A stretch of DNA of 60,044 bases, counting the filler, from Sphacelaria rigidula (taxonomy: Eukaryota), in the NCBI GenBank assembly GCA_964200075.2. It is 9 parts of 9 records of this genome, joined end to end, with 100 filler letters (N's around TTAATTAATTAA, not from the genome) between each part and the next. Parts side by side here need not be neighbours in the genome. Positions count along the whole stretch, not along the records: positions 46,781 to 53,362 come from CAXNAA020019225.1; 8 more parts are not named here. The stretch is one strand, 5' to 3'. The notes under the pieces are model-generated. The model ran no database searches. It had not been told where the DNA came from and was given only the letters and a program-made list of their open reading frames with translations. Shown here one piece after another: positions 30,701-59,555 of this stretch. Made by a program: the position numbers and the translations under genes. Position 1 is the first letter of the stretch. Each line of letters opens with the position of its first letter.

Positions 30701-32688
30701 CCCACCACTCCTCTCACCATGGACGCGGCTTTGCTGAGCATGCAAAGCTGAAGATCGGCATGGATGAAGTCTCGAGGAGATGTCGGCATCGCTCAGTTGC
30801 AGTCAACTACAGTAACAGTGGAAAGCAGATGCCGACAGCCAGAAAGCAGACGAAGCTTCTTGTGCGGTGCAGTCAGTCTTGCCTCGGGTGGAGAAGTGAT
30901 CGTAATGCAAAGGGTGTGGTGGTTTGACTGAGTGCAAAAGCTAAACACTACAAGCGCAATGCTGCTGTGGAAGCGAGGATGGGGTGATGCTGAAGACTGA
31001 GTGATGGGGGGATGAAGGTCTGATGGGCAACGAGGGGTGAAAGAAGGCGGGGGGCGGGGGGGGGTTGTCGGAGACGGTTACGCCAGCAGGTAAGCTTGCA
31101 TGTAAGAGTCAAACAAAACAAAGATCACACATGTATAATCGTCCGAATGTTAAGCCGCCAAAGATCGAGGTCTCAACGGCAAACGAAATGTGGTCTGTGA
31201 AGTGTATTATAATACTCTAGCCTCAAAGATGGAAATAAATGATTGAAAAATTGCAGTTCGACACTCGTACCGTGGTCGGATAAAAGGTGAGAGTGCAAGA
31301 GAGAGTTCCACCACACGGTCACGGTCAAATTTCCAGCGCTCGAGCGCACTTTATAATAGACGCACAGTACCTCCAACTCGATATGCCCACTACATTTCAC
31401 AGTAATTTGCACTTGAATATACTGACAACTTCGAGTTCAAGATACCTCTATTATAGTGCAGAACCATTACATCCGATCGCGAAGTTACTGTGCAAGTAAG
31501 GGTCCGACAGTAACGGGTGCCCCCATCGTGCTCGCGTGCGCAGCACGTGGTTTTACTTGAATCGGCGCCTGCGGTGCCGATTTGAGCTATGCCGACGTAC
31601 ACCTCACCTAGGGTACGCCGTGTACATGCCTTGCGCGGGGGCTTTTGGTTCATGCCTTGGGTTGTCGTCAGAGTTACCAGGGGTTAGAGTCAAAGCAAAC
31701 CGACCGCTAGAATGGGTAATCTACGTATTCCATTTATTGTTGAAGTGGATATAATGCCGACGATTCTTCTAAAAAAGATCGCATACCCTGGCGGTCATAG
31801 GCTGAGGCTTGAGTCCAACATTCGCCGACCTTGATGATATGCATCCGACGACGGACTCGTGTACACCCGCAAACCCGCCCCCCAGGAAAGAAAAGAACGC
31901 AACAGGAAGCGTCTTCTGTACGAAAGGGACCCATCGATGGGTAACAACAGCACAGCCCATTTTCGCAGTACTGACACACATCAATGACTGAATAAATTCA
32001 AAACAGCAAGTTGAAACAACTTGCTCAAGCAAAATAGCACAACGGTGTGACAGTACTGCTCGTCTCGTCTTCTTCCAGCTGATACTGCCATGGCTCAACC
32101 TCTACATACGGGTACAAGATATGTTCGTTCCGCCCCAGATGCACAGAGGCAATTCCAGCTCAAGACGTGATTCATATTCGTCGTGCGCTAAAGAAAAGAT
32201 GTTTCGTGCCAATTGTTGATGACTCTTCATATCGTCATTTGAGTGTCAGCTGATTTCACAAGGAACAAGCCTGACCCGTTGAACACGACAAAAGATCAGG
32301 ATCCTACCCCTGTGGGAGCAACAGCACAAGAAACAAAAAAAGTGGTGCCTTGACAAAAATGCATTCAAATGGACGGCATCGCAGTCGAACGGATAATTGC
32401 CGATGGTGAAGCCGATGGTTTCTCTTGTTTCCCGGCGGAATGTCGCCACTGTCGTCGTATTACAGCTACTAACAAACGTACGACATGAGCGGAATCATTG
32501 TCCGACAGTGTCACATTATGTGGCACGCTGCAGCCATGGTTTACGAGCCAACAGCATTATTACGTAATTTCAAAGGGTGTCATTCAACCGGGGATGCTGA
32601 CCTCATTTCGGAAGAACGAAGGCAGCGCCTTTGAATCATGCATGGGTTTCGACGACAACCGGATGTCAGATAAAACACTCCACCGGAA

Positions 32689-33119
32689 CTGTAGGTGAAG
32701 TACCGTACCGAGCATACCCCGGTATTTACCGGGGTATCCCATACCGTGGTATTGGTGGGTATCGTAGGTATGAGTTATGAAAAGACCCGATAGAGCGGGT
32801 AAGGTAGGTATTGAAATTTCGAACTACCGTGGTATTATGGGCAATCGTAGGTATGAGTTTTGAAAGCACTACTTGATTGAGCGGGTGCAGTAGGTACTTG
32901 TATCTCGAAATACCGTGGTATCGTAGGTAATCGTAGGTATGGCATTTGAAAAATACCCGATTAGTCGGGTGCGGTAGGTACTTGTATCTCGAAATACCGT
33001 GGTATCGTAGGTTTCGTAGATATGACCGATACCTGATTAGGCGGGTACGGTAGGCGCTGGTATCTCGAAATACCGCGGTAAATACCGGGGGTACGCTCGG
33101 TACGGTACCTTACCTACCG
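32689..33119. mobile_element. TIR element with an internal ~60-bp minisatellite
   Basis: ~48-bp TIR gtaggtgaagtaccgtaccgagcatacccccggtatttacc / ggtaaataccgggggtacgctcggtacggtaccttacctac around about 5 units of cgaaataccgtggtatcgtaggt...cccgattgagcgggtacggtaggta. Confidence 0.85.
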
Positions 33120-33260
33120 TTCCCGGTCATCTTAGCGAGGGAGACAGCGAGACCCAGGGCATGAATCGCAGCTGATGCGCCGTGCGACATGCCTGCGCCC
33201 GTGCTGTTGGAGCGATGCTAGTAGCATATTATTTGGCTCTTGTTTTTATTTTCGTTATTG

Positions 33261-35064: not shown

Positions 35065-35746
35065 CAGACCAAGAAAAGAAAAGAAAGACGACATGAAAAA
35101 TTCTCCGTCTCTCCATCTCTCTCTATATATAAATGCCCGGCCTCTGTGACATGCCTTCGGTCCAAAAGGTCTTACGCCGAAAGCACCTTCATACCCAATC
35201 GCAGCAAGCAACCTGATGATATGATGATCAGTGATAATGATCAAGCGAATCAGCAGAAAGTTCATGCGATGCTGATGCATGACGAAATCAAGTTTTCGAC
35301 GATACACAATGCTGATTTAAAAGGTGATAGGCAACCCCAGGACAGAGTTGCAATTTTCAATTTACGATTTTCACGGATGGATTGCGGGTATTCTAGCCCT
35401 GCTGAGGCGTTGCTAGGGCGGGTCTTGGCACGTTATTTATCGATCGAACAAATGGGGCGATGGAATAGATTTGAGCGAAATGCGCTCATTTTTGTCGAGT
35501 TGGGTCCAATGAGCGAATTTTCAGGCTTTCGATCGAAAAAAGACAGTGAAATTCGTGAAACGGTACATGGTCACTTGTGTACAGTACAGACAACGTGCGT
35601 CCTGAGTCTGTGTTTGCGTGTTTCGTACAGTAGGGTGTGAAAGAGAAGAGGGCAACGTGCAGTGCAGACAGCCCAGAACTATCTGTTCTCTCTGCCTACA
35701 ACGCGACGTGAGAAGGACTTGACCGACGTGCAGCTTTGCACGGAGA

Positions 35747-37839
35747 CCGTAGGTGAGGTACCGTACCGAGCGTACCCCCGGTATTTACAGGGGTATCCCA
35801 GACCGTGGTATGCGTGGGTATCGTGGGTATGAGTGTCAAAAATGCCTGATTGAGCGGGTACAGTAGGTATTCAAATCTCGAAGTACCGTGGTATCGTAGG
35901 TATCGTAGGTATCGTAGGTATGGCATTTGAAAATACCCGATTGGGTGGGTACGGTAGGTACTGGCACCTCGAAATGCCGTGGCACCGTAGGCATCGTAGG
36001 TATGAAATTTGAAACCTGATTGGGCAGGTACGGTAAGTACTGCCATCTCGAAATACCGTGGTATCGTAGGCATCGTAGGTATGAAATTTGAAAATACCCG
36101 ATTGGGCAGGTACGGTAGGTACTGGTATCTCGAAATACCATGGTATCGTAGGTATGATATTTGAAAATGACCGACTGGGTCGGTATCGGTAGGGTACTGG
36201 TATTGCGGTAGTACGTAAGAGCAGGTGCAGTGGTACGAAAGAGCAGGTTCCTCTCCATGTAGTTGTATTTTTTCATACGAGCACCCGGCAATGGCGCACT
36301 ATTTACGGCATATATATATATATATATATGCAAGGTTATTTACTTGGTATTTCGGCACTCTTTGTCTATTTCGTATGCCTCCTGCGGCCCCTCACTTTCT
36401 TTATTAACTTTTCCTCATTTTCGTGCTTTTTTTCTCTCTGCTTGTTTGCACGTGGAAGATTATTGTGTATGATGCTCATGTTTAACATGAATAATGAAAA
36501 AATGTATGGCACCGTAACGTTGATACGATATGTATATCCATTTACCAAGAACATCAGACTGCATAATCATTAGTCAATCGAATTGATCCAAACACGAAAA
36601 ACAGGGGGAACCTCGGTACTGTACATATTGCTTGAGAAAACAAGACGTACCTGCTCCGATAACTTCTGGCCTTTGCGTAAGTTGGGACCAGCTGCTGCAC
36701 CGTGGGGAGTACATCGCGTCCGACTTTCACCGGGTATACCCCCCGTTTTTACCGGGGTATCCCATACCATGGTATGCGTGGGTATCGTAGGTATGAGGTT
36801 TGAAAATCCTCGATTGAGCAGGTGCGGTAGGTATTGAAATGTCGAAAAACCGTCGTATCGCAGGTATCGTAGGTATGAGGTTTGGAAACACCTGACTAAG
36901 CGGGTACGGTAGGTATTTGTGGTGAGCCGAGCTCTCGGAGGCTTTATGGTTTCGTACTGAACCAGTTCTAGTTTAAAAGACGGAATTGTGTACGGGAGAA
37001 TCGGGGTAAAATACGATAAAGTAATCCCTGTCCGGAATACAGAGACTGAATTGTGGTGTTTGAAGATTATGGAAGCATAATTCTAGTTGCGGGCAATAAG
37101 TGGGCTGACGTATTCTATGTTGAAGTAATAAAAGTAAAGGAAAACTTGTATTCCGGATCGGAGGTAGAACAAGTAGCTGTTGGGTGTACTCTGGGGCTGA
37201 AGAGTTAGTTCTTCTAGAGCTAACATCACAGGTTGGTTGTCAAGTACGACGGAAGGGATGAAGAGACACAAGGGTGAGGGCAGAAGGTGTATTCTGCACG
37301 CACCCCGCGCCGCACTCCTCTTCTACTCTTCCTGCTTCGGAGTTCTTTCCGGGGATTGATCATGACTCTGAGTTCGGTGAAAAGTACTTATTTTAGTGGG
37401 AAAACACAAAGTACGGTACAAATCATCAGCGAAAGAGACAGTTCACTATATATTCACCTTCTGGACACATCAACGCTTTTTGTCTTGAGCTTGTTTCGGA
37501 CACGACACTCGACTTCCACAAAAGCGGTTAGACCTACATTGGAGACTAGAGAAACAGCTTCTCTCCCGATATATTGAAATCTCGAAATACCGTGGTATCT
37601 CAGGTATCGTAAGTAGGACATTTGAAAATACCTGATTGAGCGGGTGCGGTAGGTGCTGAAATCTCGAAATACCGTCGCATCGTGGGTATCGTAGGTATGA
37701 CACTTGAAAATACCCGATCGAGCGGGTACGGTAGGTGTTGACATCTCGAAATACCGTGGTATCGTGGGTATCGTCGGTATGACATTTGAAAACACCCGAT
37801 TGAACCAGCAACGGTACCGGGTACCTACCTTACCTACGG
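35747..37839. mobile_element. Compound insertion of minisatellite-TIR element(s) inside the TCGATCGAAAA repeat
   Basis: CCGTAGGTGAGGTACC at the left end and CCTTACCTACGG at the right end; 60-bp units at 35810-36200, 36730-36917 and 37572-37810. Confidence 0.7.
36918..37571. mobile_element. Probable solo LTR (~654 bp)
   Basis: Interrupts the unit ggtaggtatt|gaaatctcg; TATT duplicated at 36914-36917 and 37572-37575; ends TGT...ATA (probably decayed TGT...ACA); no coding motifs. Confidence 0.6.
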
Positions 37840-40922: not shown

Positions 40923-43386
40923 GTGGCAGACACGTTGCACGTCCTAGGACGGTGTGTGCAGCAAGCGCATGGGGCACCCGAGGAGGCAGAGGAATATTTC
41001 CGTCGAGCGCTTCACCTCAAAATCGCCGTACAGTCGCGGAAGGAAGGCGACGAAGATCCCCAGGTGAGCCTTTTGAGGTTAGCATGTGCATGTATTTGGC
41101 TCCCGACCGTCTGGCGGGGCAGGGTTGCTCAAGGTGACACTATTGGACTGTCACTAAACCGATCTCCTGTCGCACCATGGCAGAGTGACAAGTTAGAATG
41201 ACGCGCAATAGGTGGGCAGCAGCATCATCGCGTGAGCGATAGAGGCGATGCAGGTACAACGTACTACAGCAATTGCAGTGTGTTCGGTGGCATTCGATAG
41301 GGGACTGATAGCAGAGAACATTTTATCCGACGAACTTCCCCAGTAACTGGCTGGCCTGGAGGTATTGGAACGTTCTACTTGATGACGTGTTACTCCACTG
41401 CCGTTCTTCGGCGTTTTTTTGGAGTGTTGGTTGATCCAGGTCGTCAGCATTGAGGTCGCCTCGCGACCGGTGCATGATTCCAGTAACCTTCATATTATCT
41501 TTTGCTTGCTACGACACTATATTTTGTGGCACCCGCTTTCAGCTGGCGCTCACCCTTTACGAGCTCGGGCGGTGTGTGCGAGAGGTCGGTAAACCGGCAG
41601 AAGCAGAGGGCTACCTCAGGCAGGCGCTTGAGATAAAGGAAACGGCACCGAAGGCAGACCAGCTTGGCATAGCGATGACGCTTCACTCCCTCGGCAGGTG
41701 CGTATCGCTCACCTCGCCATCAACCCGCATGAGCCATCAACTTCTCAGGGGGTCTGACGTTGAAATATCAAACACCATCAATTTATGGATCACACTATGT
41801 GAATCTGGGCGTCATTTTGCAATCAGTGTACATGGAAAAAAGCGTCCACCATGTCAAAAAAGGAAACAGTATCAATCATGGAAGAAATGGAACAGCATCA
41901 ATCGTGACAAAAATATTTTGCATATTCGACGCTCTCTACCCGCGACACCCTCTCACCCATATGCTCAAATGTGTGTCATTGCATATTTATTACAGGTGTC
42001 TCCGAGAGACCAATCGGCCAGATGACGCGGCCAAGTGCCTAGGGCGGGCGTTGGCTATCGCGGAGACAAAGCTGGGTTCTGCTGACGTACACGTCGGAGC
42101 CATACTCTTCACACTGGCGTTAAGCCTTCGAGACGCGGGGCGCCCAGAAGAGGCAGCACCGTTGCTCCGGAGAACCCTGGAGATCGAGCAGACCAACTTT
42201 GACCTTCACGATGCTCAGGTGACAATCGAAGCATGCTGTGCACTTACATATATTCAAATCCCAGCCGAAGCCAGAACATACTCCACGACTCCATTCTACC
42301 CTTTTCCTAAGTTTTTGAAAATCACATTCAGAGCAGTTTGGCCCATTGTTTGTCTAATTTCAATGCACCATTGACTAATGCCGAGATAGCCCCCCCACAA
42401 AAAGTGCCCCGGAGACCATCCGACAAGCCGGCTGCGATCCCACTATTGGGCTCGTCTGCAGCGAAATCATCCACATGAGAGGCGTGTAGCAGTCCGAAAT
42501 AAGCTATAACGCCCAAATGAGTCGCGTCGTGCAGCACGAAACCACGTTTAACGGCGTTCATGATCATCGCCTCCGTGCACGTTTTTGGCCGGTTCGGGGG
42601 GGGGGGGGGGGGGGGGGGGGGTTTTTTTTTTTTTTTTTTTTTTTNNNNNNNNNNGGTGGGGTGGGTGTGGTTGGCTGGCGGCGGCGTACGCATTTGTTGC
42701 TTGCCTTAGTCATTTGACCATTGACCACGCATCCCTTTCGAGACGGAGCATGGCATCTCGGCAGCAGTCCATTGTACTGTTGTAATGCGAAAAGAGGACC
42801 GCGTGCTTAGAGGACCTCATCGGAATTTGAACACCCCTATGGTTAGGATCAGGGTTAGTGTTGGGTTTAGGGTCAGGGGCGTGATCCCTGCGGGGACTGG
42901 CCCGATTGGTTTTGAAAAACGTCGATCCTAACGTGTTTTGAGCTACGATGCGGTCTCCTAAGCACGCGATCCTCTCACGCATTACAGTACATGACTGCTG
43001 TGCGGTGAGTGCGCCCCATATTGCTTAGCGAAACGTCGAATGTACGTACCGTGTGTCTGACATGGGTCCCCTCAATCCAACATCAGGTGGTGGACACTTT
43101 GCGCGAGCTGGAACACTGCGTTCGGGCCATTGGAGGCAGAGAGCAAGAAGCCGAGCGGTATTCCAAACTTGCGGCAAGAGCCGAAGATGAAAGAAATGCC
43201 CACCCGCTAAGACGGTGGATTAATGGAGAGAGTACGAGAAGCTTGCGCGATGATGTGCGACATCCCACCGAAAACGGACGCAAGAGGGATCACAGGGATG
43301 GATCACTGCCACCTTACGAGTCTAATGTCGTTGATATGCCTGGGATTCATGAAGTGTCCGGCAGCACATCCGGCACTACAGAATAG
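40923..43386 (+). CDS. TPR-repeat protein (kinesin-light-chain/nephrocystin-3-type 42-aa TPRs; possibly the 3' end of an NB-ARC-TPR gene). Exons 40923-41063, 41543-41697, 41996-42218, 43087-43386; 5' end is off the contig
   Basis: VA.TL..LG.C......EAE.Y.R.AL.I repeats; all junctions are GT-AG with compatible phases 0, 2, 0; stop at 43384-43386. Confidence 0.88.
42685..42750 (-). mobile_element. Minimal copy of the family A LINE tail (intronic)
   Basis: Reverse complement of tgctccgtctcgaaagggatgcgtggtcaatggtcaaatgactaaggcaagcaacaaatgcgtacgcc. Confidence 0.85.
42781..42987. mobile_element. ~210-bp TTAGGG-containing MITE (intronic)
   Basis: Same TIR and body as 18416-18627. Confidence 0.85.
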
Positions 43387-44689: not shown

Positions 44690-44860
44690 TGTGATATACT
44701 ACGAGATAGATGGTGGCCATAGACGGCGAAAAAGGACGGGCATAAGGACTGTCAACGGTATTTGTGTAATGTATGCAAGAAACGTAATGAGTACCCGAAT
44801 GTTGGAGGTGCGTGGTCAGTGGTCATTCGACGAAGGCAAGCAACGAATGAGTACCACCCT
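44690..44860 (+). mobile_element. 5'-truncated, internally deleted copy of LINE family A
   Basis: Matches 14625-14730 plus the tail; flanked on both sides by C-run + gtgt (probable TSD). Confidence 0.75.
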
Positions 44861-44879
44861 CCCCCCCTGTGTCAGTACG

Positions 44880-45075
44880 CTTCGGGCCGAAATGTATTTG
44901 CAGGATGCAGTTCACCCTTCATGTGACTAACCGAACACACCACGGCGCTTCGCGCTTGGTAATCGATTGCGAGCCTGGTCCGGCGAAAACACGGCGTGCT
45001 CCGTCCGGGCTTTGTAGGGGTGCGAGGTCAATGGTCTGATGACTATGGCATGCAAGATCAGGGATACCTCGACCC
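44880..45075 (+). mobile_element. 3' end of related non-LTR family B
   Basis: Colinear with 53600-53800; shares tgctccgtc...tgcgaggtca...tgacta.ggca with family A. Confidence 0.65.
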
Positions 45076-45740
45076 ACCTAACTCCATCCGCCCCCCGTTG
45101 TTTCGGCGGGTTCGTATAGTGGCGGGTGGAAGCGCGCACGTGTAACCGTAGCATTCGGGCTATCAAATTTTGTTGCTTTTGGAGAAATACTATGGATTAC
45201 ATGCGGCGGCAATTAAGATGAGGATAGGACACGTGCAACGCGTGTAGGGGGAGGCAAACTACAGCCTCATGGTGTTGCTTCTGTCGCCCCGTAGTGTGGG
45301 TTCGGTCTGACTAGGGTGTCCCGCGCCGGACAAACATGCCACGCGTTTTTTTTTTTCTTTCTTATTTTTGTACAAAAATCCTACGATAAAGGGGATGGTC
45401 TTGGGTGCACCAAGGGTTAGTGGGTGTGTCACACCATCTGACACATTCTTTCTGTGCTTGTATGTGGGTGGACTCGTTGTCAAATCGTGTGATACGCGTG
45501 TTTTATTATGCCAGGAGCGTCCAAGAGAAATTCGGTGCTCGCAGTGTCGCTTCAAAGCGGCTCTCTTGTGTAAGACTCATCTCGACCCGGCTGCACCCCC
45601 TTCCCGGAATGACAGGATCAATCATTCTTCATCTATTTCCTCAATTGGATTCCCACTGTAATGTGTGCAGACATGCATGGTTGTTTTTTGGTATTGTTTT
45701 TTTTTCGGTTTCTCACTTCACCTTTCTTTTTTTTTTCTCC

Positions 45741-46780: not shown

Positions 46781-46850
46781 AGGAACGGAGCTCCCTGACG
46801 AGAAGGATGCGTGGTGAATGCTCAAACGACTAAGACAAACAACAAATGAT
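46781..46850 (+). mobile_element. Diverged family A LINE tail followed by an 18-nt C-run
   Basis: aggatgcgtggtgaatgctcaaacgactaagacaaacaacaaatga then poly-C. Confidence 0.75.
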
Positions 46851-47091
46851 CCCCCCCCCCCCCCCCCCATATATCAGACAAGTCATCATCCAGAGGGAGG
46901 GAGATGCACAATCATGAGTACACCTTCCCCCCTCTGGATGATGACTTATCTGACATTGGTGGCACCGTCCTACGATACGCAGAGTTGCTCAGATTCAAGT
47001 ACTCCTTGATTCGAAAAAAAAACTTCTTTCCAAGTATTTGGATATCATACAGCAGAGACACAAATTACACGCACGCGCACAAGATGTTGTA

Positions 47092-52274: not shown

Positions 52275-52732
52275 GTTGACGCTTTCAAGTTTGGTCTGCT
52301 TCTCACGTTCTCATGTTTTCGAAACGACGGAATCAGATACATATCATGTATACAAGAACAAAAAAAAATGGGATGTGCCGGGAGTCGAGCCCTCAAATCC
52401 ATCCTCACGAGTTCTACAAAAAATAATGCCCTCATTAATTAATTAGATCGCCGGTAATCGGCGGCATGGTTAAAGTAGACAAGATAAAAATGAAAATGAT
52501 TTCATGCTAACGTGTACCTTGTTCAATATTCTGTGATCGTTTTTTTTGTTTTTTCGTCCAACATTTCATACATGGGTACAAAACTGCTCACAGTTACTTG
52601 CAAATGAAGTGGGATGGCATATCCGGGAACAAGGAGATGAGCTTTCGAGACGTGTTCCCACTTGTGAGGCCCAAGGCGCCTACCCAGATCAACGGCTGCG
52701 ATTGCGGGGTCTACGTTCTGCGCTACGCACAG
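47920..52732 (+). CDS. Ulp1/SENP family (peptidase C48) SUMO protease, internal exons 47920-47967 (tentative), 48192-48310 and 52594-52732
   Basis: Spliced product ...RPCMLFLDSLDMHQSNRIWQYLWR-YLQMKW...PKAPTQINGCDCGVYVLRYAQ contains the catalytic Asp motif and Q-x-N-x-x-D-C-G; phase-2 GT-AG intron 48311-52593. Confidence 0.85.
48532..48801. mobile_element. Sola2-like MITE family S1 with 4-bp TSD TCAC (intronic)
   Basis: TCAC|GAGTGATG...GCATCGCTC|TCAC; body is the reverse complement of 692-948. Confidence 0.88.
49520..49862 (-). mobile_element. Partial inverted copy of the 47092-47686 MITE (intronic)
   Basis: ~340 bp of reverse-complement similarity to 47092-47430; ends GGCTGGCCCAGCTCG|TA. 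Confidence 0.8.
50094..50260 (-). mobile_element. 3' fragment of the (CA)n SINE
   Basis: Matches 34563-34720. Confidence 0.7.
50580..51183. mobile_element. Stowaway/mariner-like MITE with TA TSD (intronic)
   Basis: TA|CTTCCTCTATCCCATAAGTAAAGGTACCTAA ... TTAGGTACCTTTACTTGTGGGACAAAGGAAG|TA. Confidence 0.88.
51786..51839. repeat. (TA)n microsatellite
   Basis: Near-perfect dinucleotide run. Confidence 0.95.
52015..52272 (+). mobile_element. 3' part of the (CA)n SINE with an expanded CA tail
   Basis: Matches 33735-33968. Confidence 0.8.
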
Positions 52733-52934
52733 GTACGTAGTCATGCTTCACGGTAGCACATGATCGCACCCCAGGTAGTTTAGAGGTTCTCAGGACACTT
52801 CGAAGTGTCGAGCATTTCGGGGTACAGTCGACCCCGCTTTGAAGACGCTCTGGTTAAGTCAAGTCAACTCCCCGCGATAAAGACGCAAAAAAAATCAGAA
52901 CCGTGGTGCCCCGCAGATGTAATGTAGGTGGGGG

Positions 52935-53001
52935 GCGTACTCATTTGTTGCTTGCCTTAGTCATTTGACCATTGACCACGCATCCCTTTCGAGACGGAGC
53001 A
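52935..53001 (-). mobile_element. 67-bp minimal copy of the family A LINE tail with an 18-bp TSD
   Basis: atgtaatgtaggtggggg duplicated at 52917-52934 and 53002-53019. Confidence 0.92.
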
Positions 53002-53311
53002 ATGTAATGTAGGTGGGGGTCCGGAATCTTGAAGACGATTCCCCGCGTTTAAGACGCTTAAAAAAAAATTACGTGCGTCTTTAAAGAGTGGTCGACTGTA
53101 TCTAGAATATCGACTGCGTACTGAATATTTCATGGTACCTAGGATATCGACTCCCCAGGGTGCTGGGTAGTTTTGGGTGCGCTCCAAGCCACACACTGAA
53201 CTTTACCCCAACTTCATCACCTCTGCGAGTATATTTCATGTCTGTTGTTAAGCACTATGTATACCAGAGCTAAACGCAACCAATTCGGGAGGGTAGGTGG
53301 GAGGGGGGGAG

Positions 53312-53362
53312 GGCGTTCTCATTTGTTGCTTGCCTTGGTCGTGTGACCATTGACCACGCATC
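53312..53362 (-). mobile_element. Family A LINE tail next to a G-tract (cut by contig end)
   Basis: gcgttctcatttgttgcttgccttggtcgtgtgaccattgaccacgcatc preceded by G-rich sequence. Confidence 0.8.
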
Positions 53363-53599: not shown

Positions 53600-53810
53600 A
53601 GCACGCTTTGGGCCGAACAATCCTAGCAGGATGCAGCTCACCCTTCATGCAGCTCGCCGAACACATGACAGCGCTTCGCGCTCGATGATTAATGGCGAGC
53701 CTGGTCCGGCGAAACCCGGCGTGCCCCGTCCCGGCTTCGTTGGGATGCGAGGTCAACGGCCATATGACTACGGCACGCAAAATAAATGAGTACACTCTCC
53801 CCACCCCCGT
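53600..53810 (+). mobile_element. 3' end of non-LTR family B followed by a C-rich tract
   Basis: cgtgccccgtcccggcttcgttgggatgcgaggtcaacggccatatgactacggcacgcaaaataaatgagtac then ctctcccaccccc. Confidence 0.7.
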
Positions 53811-54408: not shown

Positions 54409-56639
54409 TTTGTTATTTGTAGGTACTTATCGCCCACAGTGTTCACGGTATGGTTCTTTGAAGAGTTTTCTCCCGTCATCCCTGTGTGTGCTGCTAGACG
54501 TTTGCTTGTAGAATTCGGTGGTTTCACAACGACTTACAGTAATTAGGACATCCTCACCGATCGAGACCGACGTTGGAAACGTTGCGGTTTTTTTGCGTGT
54601 ACGAAGTTTGCAATAAGCAGTAATTGTAGGGACACGCGTAACGCCACAGTACACCGTGGTGTTTTTTGCACGGTTAGTCGTTTGCGGAGGGAGGCGTGCC
54701 CACGGAATCTCCCGCCCTTGTAGAAATGCTGAGGCATTGCTGCCCCTCCTTCTATGCCCCCTGGGTTGAGTTTTTGTGTTTCCGCAATCGCTTTTGACGG
54801 AGTCGGCCCGTTTCAGGTTTTTCGATATATAGGTGTGCTTGGCTCTTCTTGAGAAAACTGCATAGTAGATGATGAACTGCCCTCAGAGTAACTCCGTGCC
54901 CCCTTCGCGTAGTTTTCCTAGACGCGCTGTTGAGTATCTGCACAGATGTCGAAACAGCACCCCGACCCGCCACCATAGGATTGTGGTGGTTCTTGAAGGG
55001 GGAAGTGCGGCGTGTGTCCGTTGCTGGTGCTGTGGGCCCTCATTGCGCGTCCTGTTTGCTTCCCCCCCATCGACGTGCGCTTATTTTGTGTTTCGTACGA
55101 AGTCGTTCGTTTGAAGTTTTTTGTCTTGTTGTGAATGTATCTGGTGCTTGTGCAGTAATGTTGGGCACACAATATGGCCTGGTCTACTGTGTTGGGGATA
55201 CTGTACGCGTAATACTTTTGCTCATTTTGTGTGTGAATTACAAAAGTAGTGCTCGTAGGCGGCATCGATGGCTACATGTTAAAGTATGTTGCGCAGCGCG
55301 CTGTGTGCGCGACGGAAGCAGGGGCACATCGATGTTCCTTTTTCTTGACAAAATTACTTACTTCACGTGTCATACTCCTCTCGTCTCTGTCCGTCTATTT
55401 GCTGTCTCTTCTCTCTTTTCTCTCTTTTTTCTCTCTCTCTGTCGTGCGGGAGTTCGGGCGCAAATGTTTGCGCCCACCAGTCCTAGTCAACAATCTCCTC
55501 GGATGAGTAGGTCACGATGCCCGGTACAGTATCGCTCCGAGCGTTACCGTGTTGCTGAATGGCTGTGCACGAGGGGCGAGCCATATGTTCGTCCCAAAGA
55601 CATGGCTAAGAAAACGAACATCACACACAAGAGTTGATTCATCGGGGTAAGGATAATCTACACTACAGTGTGCATCCGCCAGGTGTTCTGAATACTGTTG
55701 GCGTGATTGAGGGGGACAAAATATGGACATACACTGGAGACAGAACCAACCAACCGTGGAGTGGCCCTGTTTTCCGGTTCCCAGCTGCGATCGCCTGTAT
55801 AACTCGTTATCCACACACATGAAGAGGTTCTTCGAGAACACGTTCTGCCGAAACATGCAGAATGTGCCGCGAAATTAATTTGGCAAAAAAAAATCAACAA
55901 ATATTCAATACGTACGCCACCTCGCCCTGCCCGTTTCTCTTCGTGTTTCCCAAGGTTGCTCTCTGTAGGGTAATACTTCTTGTAGACCCGGGGCATTCAC
56001 TCGGGTATGACTCTTACCCGACAATCCCGAGTTCTGTAAGCCTCCCATATTGCGGTACCCGATATTTTTGTGAGATTTTCCAATTTTCCAATTGGTTGTT
56101 GTCTCAGGCCCTTACAGATTCGGCATAGGCATTCTGTGACAGAAAAGTGTTTCGTTTTCATCAAACTATATTTTCAGGACCAATCAGAACTTTTCAAGAA
56201 TCAATTTTGCTGGGAATTACCCCGAGTTTCGTGCTTGGGTAGCGTATCTCTACCCTCGTGTTTCATACCTTGCCGAAGATCCTGGAAATGCACCACTCCT
56301 GGCGCTGCATGATGTTTCCTGACCCTACGGTAACCACCAACCTTTCTTTTAGTGATGCCGCGATAGTTCCCCCCCAAACCAACCCTCGGCCCACTATGGG
56401 ATTGGCGTCGGTTGCCAATGGCGCTGTGAACACGCCACTCACTACGTAGGCTAGGCAACCAGTTTACCGTTTATAATGGGAATTGTGTTGTAGTCTCACA
56501 TTGACGGGAGCGGCTCCCGCGCAACCCGCGGTGACTGAAACAAAAGTCCTGAAGCTAGGTCCGTCCTGCGAAGTTATGCTCAAGGAACAATCGAAGTATT
56601 CTCTCGTGCTCTTTGGTGCTTCTGGTGCGACCTACATGG

Positions 56640-59555
56640 CAGTGTTTGCTCTGTTGCCGTCCGAGGATCAAGGCTTCGGCGGTTCTTTGATCACGGTGGT
56701 GCTGGTGGATAGTGGCGCATCGGAGCACTTCGTCGACTCCCTTCTCATCCCTGACTTGCACAAGCACACGGTGGAGTACTGTGCCCTGCCAGTTCCTCAC
56801 AAGATAATCACTGCTGGGCAGCATGTGCTGGAAGGTTTTGCGAAGGGTATCGTCCAAGGTACTGTCCGGGACTCCGTTGGCACTAATCGGAGAGTAGAAT
56901 TCCCTGCCGTTGTCGTACCTTGTCCTGGGAAATACTTGTTCTCCGTTGCCGCGTCGTCGAAAATGGCAGTCGCGCCAATTTTCGATTCTGTTCAACCGCG
57001 ACTGGGGGAAGATAATACGCTTTACTCTTTTTCGGTTGAGACTACAAGGGTGTGGCTTTACGAGCTGAGACTGCGGATATGTGGCACCGCCGCGTGGCGC
57101 ACATCAACTCTGGGAGTATGAACGTCCTGCGGCGGACACCCGGCAACGGTGTCGAATACAACAGAGAAGCGGAAGCATGCGACACCTACGCTCTCGGCAA
57201 GAGCGCACACCATGCACACCCCAAGAGGGCATCTTACAACGTTCAGCGACCTTTTCAGCTGATTAGTGCCGATCTCATGGGGCCCATCATCCCGGAAGCG
57301 CTGAGTGGCTTCGCGTACGCCGGAAAGTTTGTCGACCAACATACCAAGTGGGTTGATCTCTTCCTGCTCAAACGAAAGCAGGATGCAGTTATCACCTTGC
57401 AGCTCTTCGTTCAATCCCCGACTATCCCGAGCGGGTTGCTTCTGGAGCGTCTTCGACCCGACAAAGGTTGGGGTGTACGCGGGTTCGGCATTCCGCCAGT
57501 ACTGTCTGGATATCGGCGTGAAACTCGAGTTTGCTCCCACCAACACCCTTCAGCAGATTGGAGGTAACGAACGAGCCGGGAGGTCACTAGCTGGAGTTGT
57601 GCGCTGCTTGCTCTCGGATTCCTGTCTACCGCATTTTCTTTAGGGGGAGCAGTTCATGCAGACGGCCGTCTACCTCGGCAATCGATCACCGCACGCGGCC
57701 GTGGACACCGCAACGCCGTACGCAACCTTCTACGGCCAAGAGGCGAATCTTAAACACCTTCAGACCATCGGGGCCAGAACGTTTGTGCACATTGAAACGC
57801 ACACCAGAAAGCTGCAGCCTTGAGCCTGGAGAGGTCGCCACGTCGGGTACAGCATGGATGGACAGCAAGCCATTTCGCATCTACAACCCCGAGAAACGCA
57901 ACGTGTGAGAGAGCCGCATCGTGATCATCATCGAGACACCATCCACCGTGACTGAGCTTGACTTGGTGAATGATTGTGGTTTTGACGAGAGCAAGTTCAC
58001 CTATCTCGACCAAGACAATCTTGTGAGGGACATGCGAGATTACACTTCGCGTCTCGATCTCAGCTCCGAATCTAATCAGCACAAGACTGCAAATGAATCG
58101 GTGCTCGAGCTCCTACGTCTGACCCACGAGACAACTAACCGTGATCTCAAGGTGAGCCCTTCGAGCTCAGTGTCACCACCAACTCCTCCGATCACTGCTT
58201 CTCCCATACGTTTTCCACACTCTTCAGGGGGATTGACCTCGTCTGCTTCAAGAGGGATCACTGACGCGCCTGGCAGTGCTGCACCTCACGCGAGAACTTC
58301 TCGGGAACTCCGTTGTTTGGCGTACTACACGAAGATAGTTTTTCCGGACGTTGCTCATCGGGATGCTTCCGCAAATTTGTCGAATATACATATGCGGCAA
58401 CCAGCATCTAAACCAACCGTCGTTCGGAGAAGGAGAACGTCCAGATCATCCCCAACACCTTCAAGGAGGCCATGGATTTGCCGGAAGCCCAGAAATGGAA
58501 AGAGGCATCTGAGGTGGAAATGAGGAGTCTCCGAGACCTCGAGGTATTTTTTCTTGTACCACGTTCAAGCGTTTCTCCGGGAAAGACGATAAGAGGGTCG
58601 AAGTGGGTGTACAAGGTGAAGTCGGATGGTACCCACAAAGCGCGCCTAGTTGCTCAGGGTTGGAACCAAGTACCAGGTAGAGATTGCGGCGGCACCTATT
58701 CCCCAGTGTGCAGGCTCCAGAGCATCAGGACGGTTCTTGCCCTCGCAGCGGAGAAAGACTGGGTAATATACCAATTGGACGTTCAGACTGCTTTTTTGGA
58801 CGTAGATGTCGACGAGGAGGTTCACGTGAAAATGGAACCAGGCTTTGAAGCCTCGAACGAGAGCGGAGATCCTTTCGTGACGAAGCTGCAGAAAAGCCTC
58901 TACGGCTTAGCTCAAAGCCCCCAGAACTGGTGAAAAACAATCGACCCCAGCCCGGTGGAAATCGGATTTGTGCCCTTAAGCCGTCGCGCCCCGGTGGTGT
59001 AATGGTCCGACGGTCGCCATTAGGGTGGAGAGAACGGGGGTTCGATTCCCGATGCGTTGGGTCTTTTCTTCGTCATGTATGATTTTCACCGTGGAAAGCG
59101 TGAGAACGTGAGTAAACAAAAGTAGGCGACTGGGTTGTGTGACGTGAGTTGACGTGGTGCGGGAGTGCTGATCCAATCCGCGAGATCAATGAAAGGCTCG
59201 TACCGGGGGAGAGATGGGTTGATCCCTTGAGACCACGGACTCATCCCGAAGAAGGAGAGGGGTTCAAAGTGTGGGGAAAAACAAAAAAAGTCTGACACCT
59301 GTGCCTACATCGACAGTTGCAACAACACCGTCATCATCCTGACGCGCTGTACGTGAATGATCTTCTCCTAATCGGGGGGGATATTCGCGAGCTAGAAAGT
59401 ATCAACAAGAACTTGATGGGTAGATTCAAGATGAAGGGTTTCGGAGATGTGCAGCATTTTCTGGGCATGGGAGTCACGCGTGACCGAAAGAACGGCACGT
59501 TGGCAATCAGCTAGGAAAGTTACACCAGGTCTATTCTGGAGCGGTTTGGTGTGGC
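56640..59555 (+). mobile_element. pol: Decayed Ty1/copia LTR retrotransposon pol (protease, integrase, RT)
   Basis: VDSGASEH; WHRRVAH; ISADLMGP; RLR.DKG; QQIGGNER; KWVYKVK...KARLVAQG; QLDVQTAFL; LQKSLYGLAQSP; LYVNDLL (YVDD decayed); copia domain order with stops and frameshifts. Confidence 0.93.
58981..59287 (+). mobile_element. tRNA-derived SINE inserted in the copia RT
   Basis: A-box tggtgtaatgg, B-box ggttcgattcc, A-rich tail; splits the GFVPL-KSDTCAY motif, with AAG on both sides. Confidence 0.8.

Follow-up and report, generated by a model that had tools for sequence, protein, structure and literature searches.

An abundant LINE that ends in a C-run and inserts at C-runs in the genome of Sphacelaria rigidula

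The window and its LINE copies

The window analysed here, a stretch of 60,044 nt joined from nine records of the Sphacelaria rigidula genome (assembly GCA_964200075.2), carries eight copies of the 3′ tail of a LINE (family A) and two of a partner (family B) with a common 3′ motif (Table 1). The focal copy lies within a target-site duplication (TSD) that the sequence-only reading had called perfect, and it is: 52917-52934 and 53002-53019 agree at 18 of 18 positions, with no extension on either side. In the comparison of 52300-53360 with contigs of four runs, no insertion-skipping joint was found among the 15 of 94 joints listed; contigs from another sample break at the identical TSD edges.

All eight tails had been held to run into C-rich sequence without poly(A), which counting confirmed: at least nine C occur within 15 nt past the tail in 8/8 copies, against 0.9% of random 15-mers from the window, and poly(A) is absent from all eight. 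The copy at 44690 had been described as bordered by a C-run plus GTGT on both sides; its 5′ side reads as described and its 3′ side is a C-run plus TGTGT, which makes a TSD with one mismatch. Inspection by eye shows the 5′ flank of the copy at 42685 to lack a C-run, so that a C-tract is not universal among targets.

Pfam searches with the RT and C-terminal fragments of the long copy (13367..14820), which are broken, gave no significant match. A fragment resembling a second, RTE-type RT was seen by eye directly downstream of this copy (15000-15200). The window also holds degraded LTR-retrotransposon-like ORFs (58-2131, minus strand; 56477-58933, plus strand; Gypsy-like and Copia-like by eye), a family of repeats that contain a tandem unit of ~83 nt and are partly inverted (32684-33123, 35741-36200, 36707-36920 and 37572-37803), and a MITE-like element of ~210 bp with 38-bp terminal inverted repeats (18415-18622, 19061-19273 and 42780-42990).

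Table 1. Family A and family B features in the window.
Position	Strand	Feature	Remark
1..58	+	Tail copy and C-run	At edge of the window
13367..14820	+	Long degraded copy, interrupted by assembly gap	RT half, CCHC motif, coding tail
13367-13920	+	RT C-terminal half of long copy	Frameshifts and stops
about 14460-14510	+	CCHC motif of long copy	
14821..14835	+	C-rich 3′ junction of long copy	C at 12/15
22943..23029	-	Short diverged copy	3′ flank C-rich
42669..42750	-	66-nt-type copy	3′ flank C-rich; 5′ flank without C-run
44690..44869	+	Short copy	Internal deletion; decayed C-run/GT TSD
44874..45078	+	Second family B copy	Directly 3′ of the 44690 copy
46781..46865	+	Tail copy adjoining assembly gap	C-run pure
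52917..52934	-	TSD, 3′ copy	Match to 53002-53019
52935..52935	-	Single surplus C on sense 3′ side	Absent from target (tail-derived)
52936..53001	-	Focal 66-nt LINE 3′ unit	Last 19 codons and stop of EN-RT ORF, plus 5 nt
52936..53001	-	Predicted three-way junction in focal unit	Fold prediction
53002..53019	-	TSD, 5′ copy	Exact 18/18 match to 52917-52934; original target a 5-C run, then 13 unique nt
53297..53362	-	Tail copy adjoining assembly gap	3′ flank C-rich
53600..53805	+	Family B, partner with common 3′ motif and C-rich end	RTEX-N1-like

Abundance, C-run targeting and placement

The element is very abundant, of brown-algal type, ends in a C-run and inserts at C-runs. A 20-mer from its tail has 3,768 exact matches in the 244-Mb genome (control, 0), and an RT search gave 1,525 first-look RT candidates. 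Genome-wide, CCC comes next after the tail plus one base in 3,429 cases, with both strands equally represented (1,720 versus 1,709), and a triplet free of C in 33, of which a single one is AAA (mixed triplets left uncounted). In an unselected set of 93 first-listed copies, six of which were left out for contig ends or N, a C-run of at least 5 follows the tail in 75 of the 87 readable 3′ flanks, and an A-run of at least 5, an outcome that the sequence-only reading had set against itself, in 0/87.

The 5′ flanks consist purely of target. A C-run of at least 5 lies within 25 nt in 53 of the 76 that were readable, against a background of 2.2% of 12,291 windows, and a G-run in 2/76. Since these flanks are enriched for C-runs but not for G-runs, the targeting is real and strand-specific; it is genuine and does not depend on the tail. 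The earlier view that the C-run is partly the target itself is upheld, with the addition that the element contributes C too (23/38 sites, below).

In long copies, an endonuclease lies upstream of the RT, and a C-terminal motif follows. Pfam detected RVT_1 in three segments (L146, E=4e-28; L134; L144) and Exo_endo_phos in three (L135; L137, E=2e-5; L149), the curated cut-off being passed by L137 only. We take the endonuclease to be of the APE type and the C-terminal motif to be CCHC. No GIY-YIG domain was found in the eight segments scanned. None of 20 long copies from this genome has an intact ORF, and endonuclease, RT and CCHC are all broken; the closest homologues are single ORFs, 73% (P0003, intact, 1360 aa) and 71% (P0004, 1328 aa) identical over the RT. 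The closest named homologues are Ectocarpus proteins, the best RT match reaching 61% over 88% of the query. In a quick tree of 104 RTs, whose references are homologues, none of them labelled RTEX, the RT from this genome (P0001) groups with the Ectocarpus-labelled P0007, P0008 and P0044 (SH-aLRT 100). Viral contigs gave 0 matches. Residues 8-100 of P0003 form an N-terminal domain ahead of the endonuclease that is RRM-like by eye, with no Pfam or Atlas assignment; the N-terminal 93 aa gave one ESM Atlas match at 0.78, a lead at most.

Three features of RTE-X elements are found here, namely an APE domain upstream of the RT, a (C)n 3′ end with C-rich TSDs, and a partner with the last ~60 bp in common. 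We consider the element probably a brown-algal RTE-X-type LINE of the stringent kind, with one EN-RT ORF and a C-terminal CCHC motif. Three other assignments were rejected. For the L1 clade, neither the poly(A) tail nor the TTTT/AA target was found (A-run of at least 5 in 0/87, AAA in 1/33); for the RTE clade, represented by Ectocarpus RTE-1/2 with a (CAA)n tail, the tail here is a C-run instead; and for the Chlamys PLEs, an APE domain is present in place of GIY-YIG in the eight segments scanned.

The sequence-only reading had left open whether such behaviour was already described, and its novelty does not stand, by the condition that it had itself set, a described family of like behaviour. 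In the supplement of a 2025 study (PMC12477816, MOESM3), RTEX-1_Ec32 of Ectocarpus is entered as "single EN-RT ORF; (C)n 3'" and RTEX-2_Ec32 as "(C)n termini/TSD", the TSD is given as "C-rich" for all RTE-X, RTEX-N1 has a 60-bp 3′ end in common, and (CAA)n is listed for RTE-1/2. RTEX-1/2_Ec32 thus resemble the present element in their single EN-RT ORF, (C)n 3′ end, C-rich TSD and thousands of copies, and RTEX-N1/N2_Ec32 in being non-autonomous partners with ~60 bp of common 3′ end; they differ in belonging to another genome, and the comparison is with their annotation entries (PMC12477816). The C-tailed, C-targeting habit is therefore already annotated in a related seaweed, and only finer details are new: the entries for these elements in that table are silent on TSD length, nick site, surplus of the tail and a 66-nt mode, and the main text has no instance of "C-rich" (PMC12477816). 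Within the literature searched, outside which lie Repbase, Dfam and subscription journals, we found neither a mechanistic account of a C-tailed LINE nor a GGGG/A-like nick preference or a sharp 66-nt copy length.

The 66-nt unit

The 66-nt tail is coding: it encodes the protein's final 19 residues, and its stop codon is separated from the C-run by 5 nt. The 1360-aa homologue P0003 ends in the same peptide, which is also present in many relatives of 45-50% identity behind a highly variable linker (C-termini of P0010-P0046); the conservation of this short peptide across distant homologues suggests a constraint at the RNA level on the last codons. A three-way junction is predicted for the unit, with z-scores (-0.05 to -2.06) not clearly better than those of shuffles, and in the MAFFT alignment the 5′ half of the RNA unit is misplaced. 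An Rfam search with the last 170 nt of one copy gave no credible family or ribozyme (one chance match, E=2), so that self-cleavage is unsupported.

Family B has a C-run end in 23/24 copies and its 3′ motif in common with family A. The two families are often inserted in each other's C-tails, producing head-to-tail clusters (L022, L026, L029, L060, L061, L172, L178 and L198). A pattern scan of metagenomes gave six matches, comprising four close relatives that terminate in this C-run too, one chance match and one distant relative. The last (L275:868-945), found in one contig only, is 30% identical to P0003 and has the same 3′ motif with an (ATT)n end; the same three-way junction is predicted for it, again with weak z-scores.

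Most copies stop sharply at the unit's 5′ edge. Among 131 copies unselected for length, a set that includes 30 non-C loci, 69 end at 60-72 nt with a peak at 66, and 74 of 79 young copies end at 66-70 nt. The first 21 nt of the unit have 2,933 exact matches, of which 640 run on into six upstream LINE bases; allowing for divergence, we estimate that, of the copies in which the 5′ end of the unit is retained, about three quarters stop there. Long copies are under-assembled or collapsed in this assembly, which may inflate the short share. The sharp mode of 66-67 nt coincides with the 5′ arm of the predicted closing stem, for example at 52936-53001 and 42685-42750. A second mode at ~120 nt, apparent in 8/28 copies of a selected set, was unsupported otherwise (only 2-3/131).

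The length mode could also be explained if the short copies were not aborted long ones but a self-renewing, promoterless micro-SINE made from host read-through RNA that is trimmed as far as the folded unit with its bound protein. The 60-72 nt ends and the extension of only 640 of the 2,933 matches agree with this, as does the position of the edge at the predicted stem arm, where trimming, rather than RT stalling, would be expected to stop; head-to-tail units are, moreover, present in contigs of other runs. Against it, the next upstream base is the LINE's own G in 58/120 short copies, no informative donor flank is common to the 120 (two low-complexity pairs only), 0/24 family B copies begin at the same stem edge by eye, and under-assembly of long copies may inflate the mode. 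We regard this account of the length mode as unlikely.

Insertion junctions, tail origin and implications

The young set comprises 90 copies with an exact 65-mer, of which 79 were usable after 11 were left out for contig ends or N. TSDs, required to span 8 nt or more and to include 4 or more bases other than C, were called in 44/79 (shuffled mean 2.5, maximum 5) and in 15/71 unselected copies (0.9 when shuffled); by eye, uncalled copies mostly have C-rich flanks too simple for this filter. Six of the 44 calls were excluded by eye before counting (one tandem self-match, five broken by mismatches), leaving 38 clean sites. There, the TSD has a median of 15 bp and starts in a C-run with at least 3 C, the target run having 3-17 C. 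Compared with the target run, the 3′ run is longer at 23 sites, equal at 3 and shorter at 12, and there is no correlation between their lengths (rho 0.04), as expected if the tail is the element's own. Surplus 3′ letters over the 38 sites amount to 103 C and 2 T, and tails of 7-11 C are common where the target has 3-5 C. At 14/38 sites the TSD starts directly past the tail, and at some non-C exceptions the tail joins the target through a short match.

A check on empty sites, suggested earlier for orthologues, could be made on paralogues in a dispersed repeat, and among the paralogues listed it bore out a short target C-run: each has one TSD copy, with 4 C against 10 C when filled (L239) and 3 C against 8 C when filled (L235). 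The C is supplied by both target and element. The same repeat has several short C-runs and has received repeated independent LINE insertions (flanks of L163, L232, L234, L235 and L239).

At the 24 sites where the nick could be placed, the top-strand base preceding the run is T in 15, A in 7, G in 1 and C in 1, with G depleted (p=0.011); the bottom-strand nick therefore reads GGGG/A or GGGG/T, a preference that is based on n=24.

The likely explanation is an RTE-X-type LINE in which a nicked G-run primes on the C-run of the RNA, with a C-tail templated by the genomic run of the source copy. The element's protein would bind the folded 66-nt RNA unit, which overlaps the last codons and is common with the partner family. 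The bottom strand would be nicked where a run of at least 3 G ends on its 3′ side, mostly before A or T; the site is read from the junctions, and the APE endonuclease of the element is the presumed agent. The RNA would offer a short C-run at its 3′ end, on which the freed G-run would pair and prime reverse transcription, as the surplus C at the 3′ junctions suggests, and a second nick, placed by the junctions about 14-15 nt away, gives rise to the TSD. The C-run of the RNA would most likely be copied by read-through of the genomic C-run behind each source copy, such that tail and target may renew each other in the manner of the microsatellite tails of other non-L1 LINEs. Judging from the length mode, most events end at the 5′ edge of the unit.

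This bears on the earlier proposal of a G/C mirror of L1. The C-tract targeting stands, and the 3′ surplus is nearly pure C as G-strand priming predicts; the analogy is nevertheless loose, because the element is not L1-type, only 5 nt separate the stop of its ORF from the C-run, and (ATT)n forms the tail of a relative. Given that relative, a tail of microsatellite type describes the C-run better than a homopolymer added by a polymerase does. The element would then resemble stringent LINEs, its microsatellite tail being mononucleotide, more than it mirrors poly(A) in the true sense. Human LINE-1 is comparable in that its APE nick, too, falls where a homopolymer run ends (TTTTT/AA; PMC10830416), in its TSD of about 15 bp (PMC4245944) and in a tail that exceeds the target run. 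It differs in that ORF2p itself binds poly(A) (PMC10830416) and in being a relaxed LINE with a real 3′ UTR, whereas the recognised unit here is coding and common with a partner family; the RT match to it reaches only E about 1e-14. Stringent LINEs (I, UnaL2, green-algal RTEX) have a conserved, structured 3′ end in common with SINE-like partners and a short-repeat tail without poly(A) (PMC3747384), from which the present element differs in having one C as its repeat unit and a strict, strand-specific run as its G:C pairing target. Chlamys PLEs likewise show targeted insertion at (C)n repeats and very short 5′-truncated copies (median 128 bp; PMC8557442, PMC9977147), but combine a GIY-YIG endonuclease with a PLE RT, in contrast to the APE endonuclease and non-LTR RT found here.

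It is rather unlikely that the surplus C is untemplated, added as oligo(C) by a host nucleotidyltransferase or by telomerase-like RT slippage on a very short C-tract. The purity of the surplus (103/105 C) and the frequency of 7-11 C tails at 3-5 C targets speak for such addition, as does the finding of 3′ transduction in 0/35 uncalled copies (one spurious tandem match; 25 of them seen only ~70-160 nt downstream), though read-through templating might give some. A genomic C-run is, however, already behind every source copy, so that no enzyme is necessary for the tail; moreover, the tail is a trinucleotide repeat in the relative that has the same motif, and the tails of green-algal RTEX are varied microsatellites (PMC3747384, Table 3).

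We think it quite unlikely that the 66-nt unit is a promoterless micro-retroposon replicon, excised from longer RNA at the edge of the three-way junction and copied by the RTE-X protein into G-tract nicks, with a C-tail that may be untemplated and a predicted junction conserved from brown algae to the distant (ATT)n-tailed lineage. A C-run consisting of target alone, with an element that ends at the last tail base and an RNA without C-tail, would suit the 14/38 sites with no intervening C and the non-C exceptions that join by short target match; it is very hard to sustain against the 23/38 sites with more C than the target, the surplus C at short targets, which contradicts it, and the surpluses of 5-6 C over paralogous empty sites. 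Homopolymer assembly error or expansion of the C-run after insertion, conceivable in a short-read assembly with many gaps near copies, is most improbable given a surplus confined to the 3′ copy of the TSD, equal counts on both strands and the same end in independent metagenome contigs.

The element is not a new class. Under the reading preferred here, G:C homopolymer pairing can sustain target-primed reverse transcription over thousands of insertions, a behaviour so far recorded, among the literature searched, only in an annotation table, and it comes with testable figures: a GGGG/A-like nick, a stagger of 14-15 nt and a 66-nt RNA handle. Untemplated C addition, if true, would be a genuine mirror of poly(A); the micro-retroposon, if true, would be among the smallest retroposons, with an RNA handle that stays fixed while its tail and the endonuclease specificity switch in concert. 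Relatives that have one RNA motif in common, with C or ATT tails, offer a natural test of how tail and target change together in LINEs, and the LINE accounts for part of the C/G-run landscape in such genomes.
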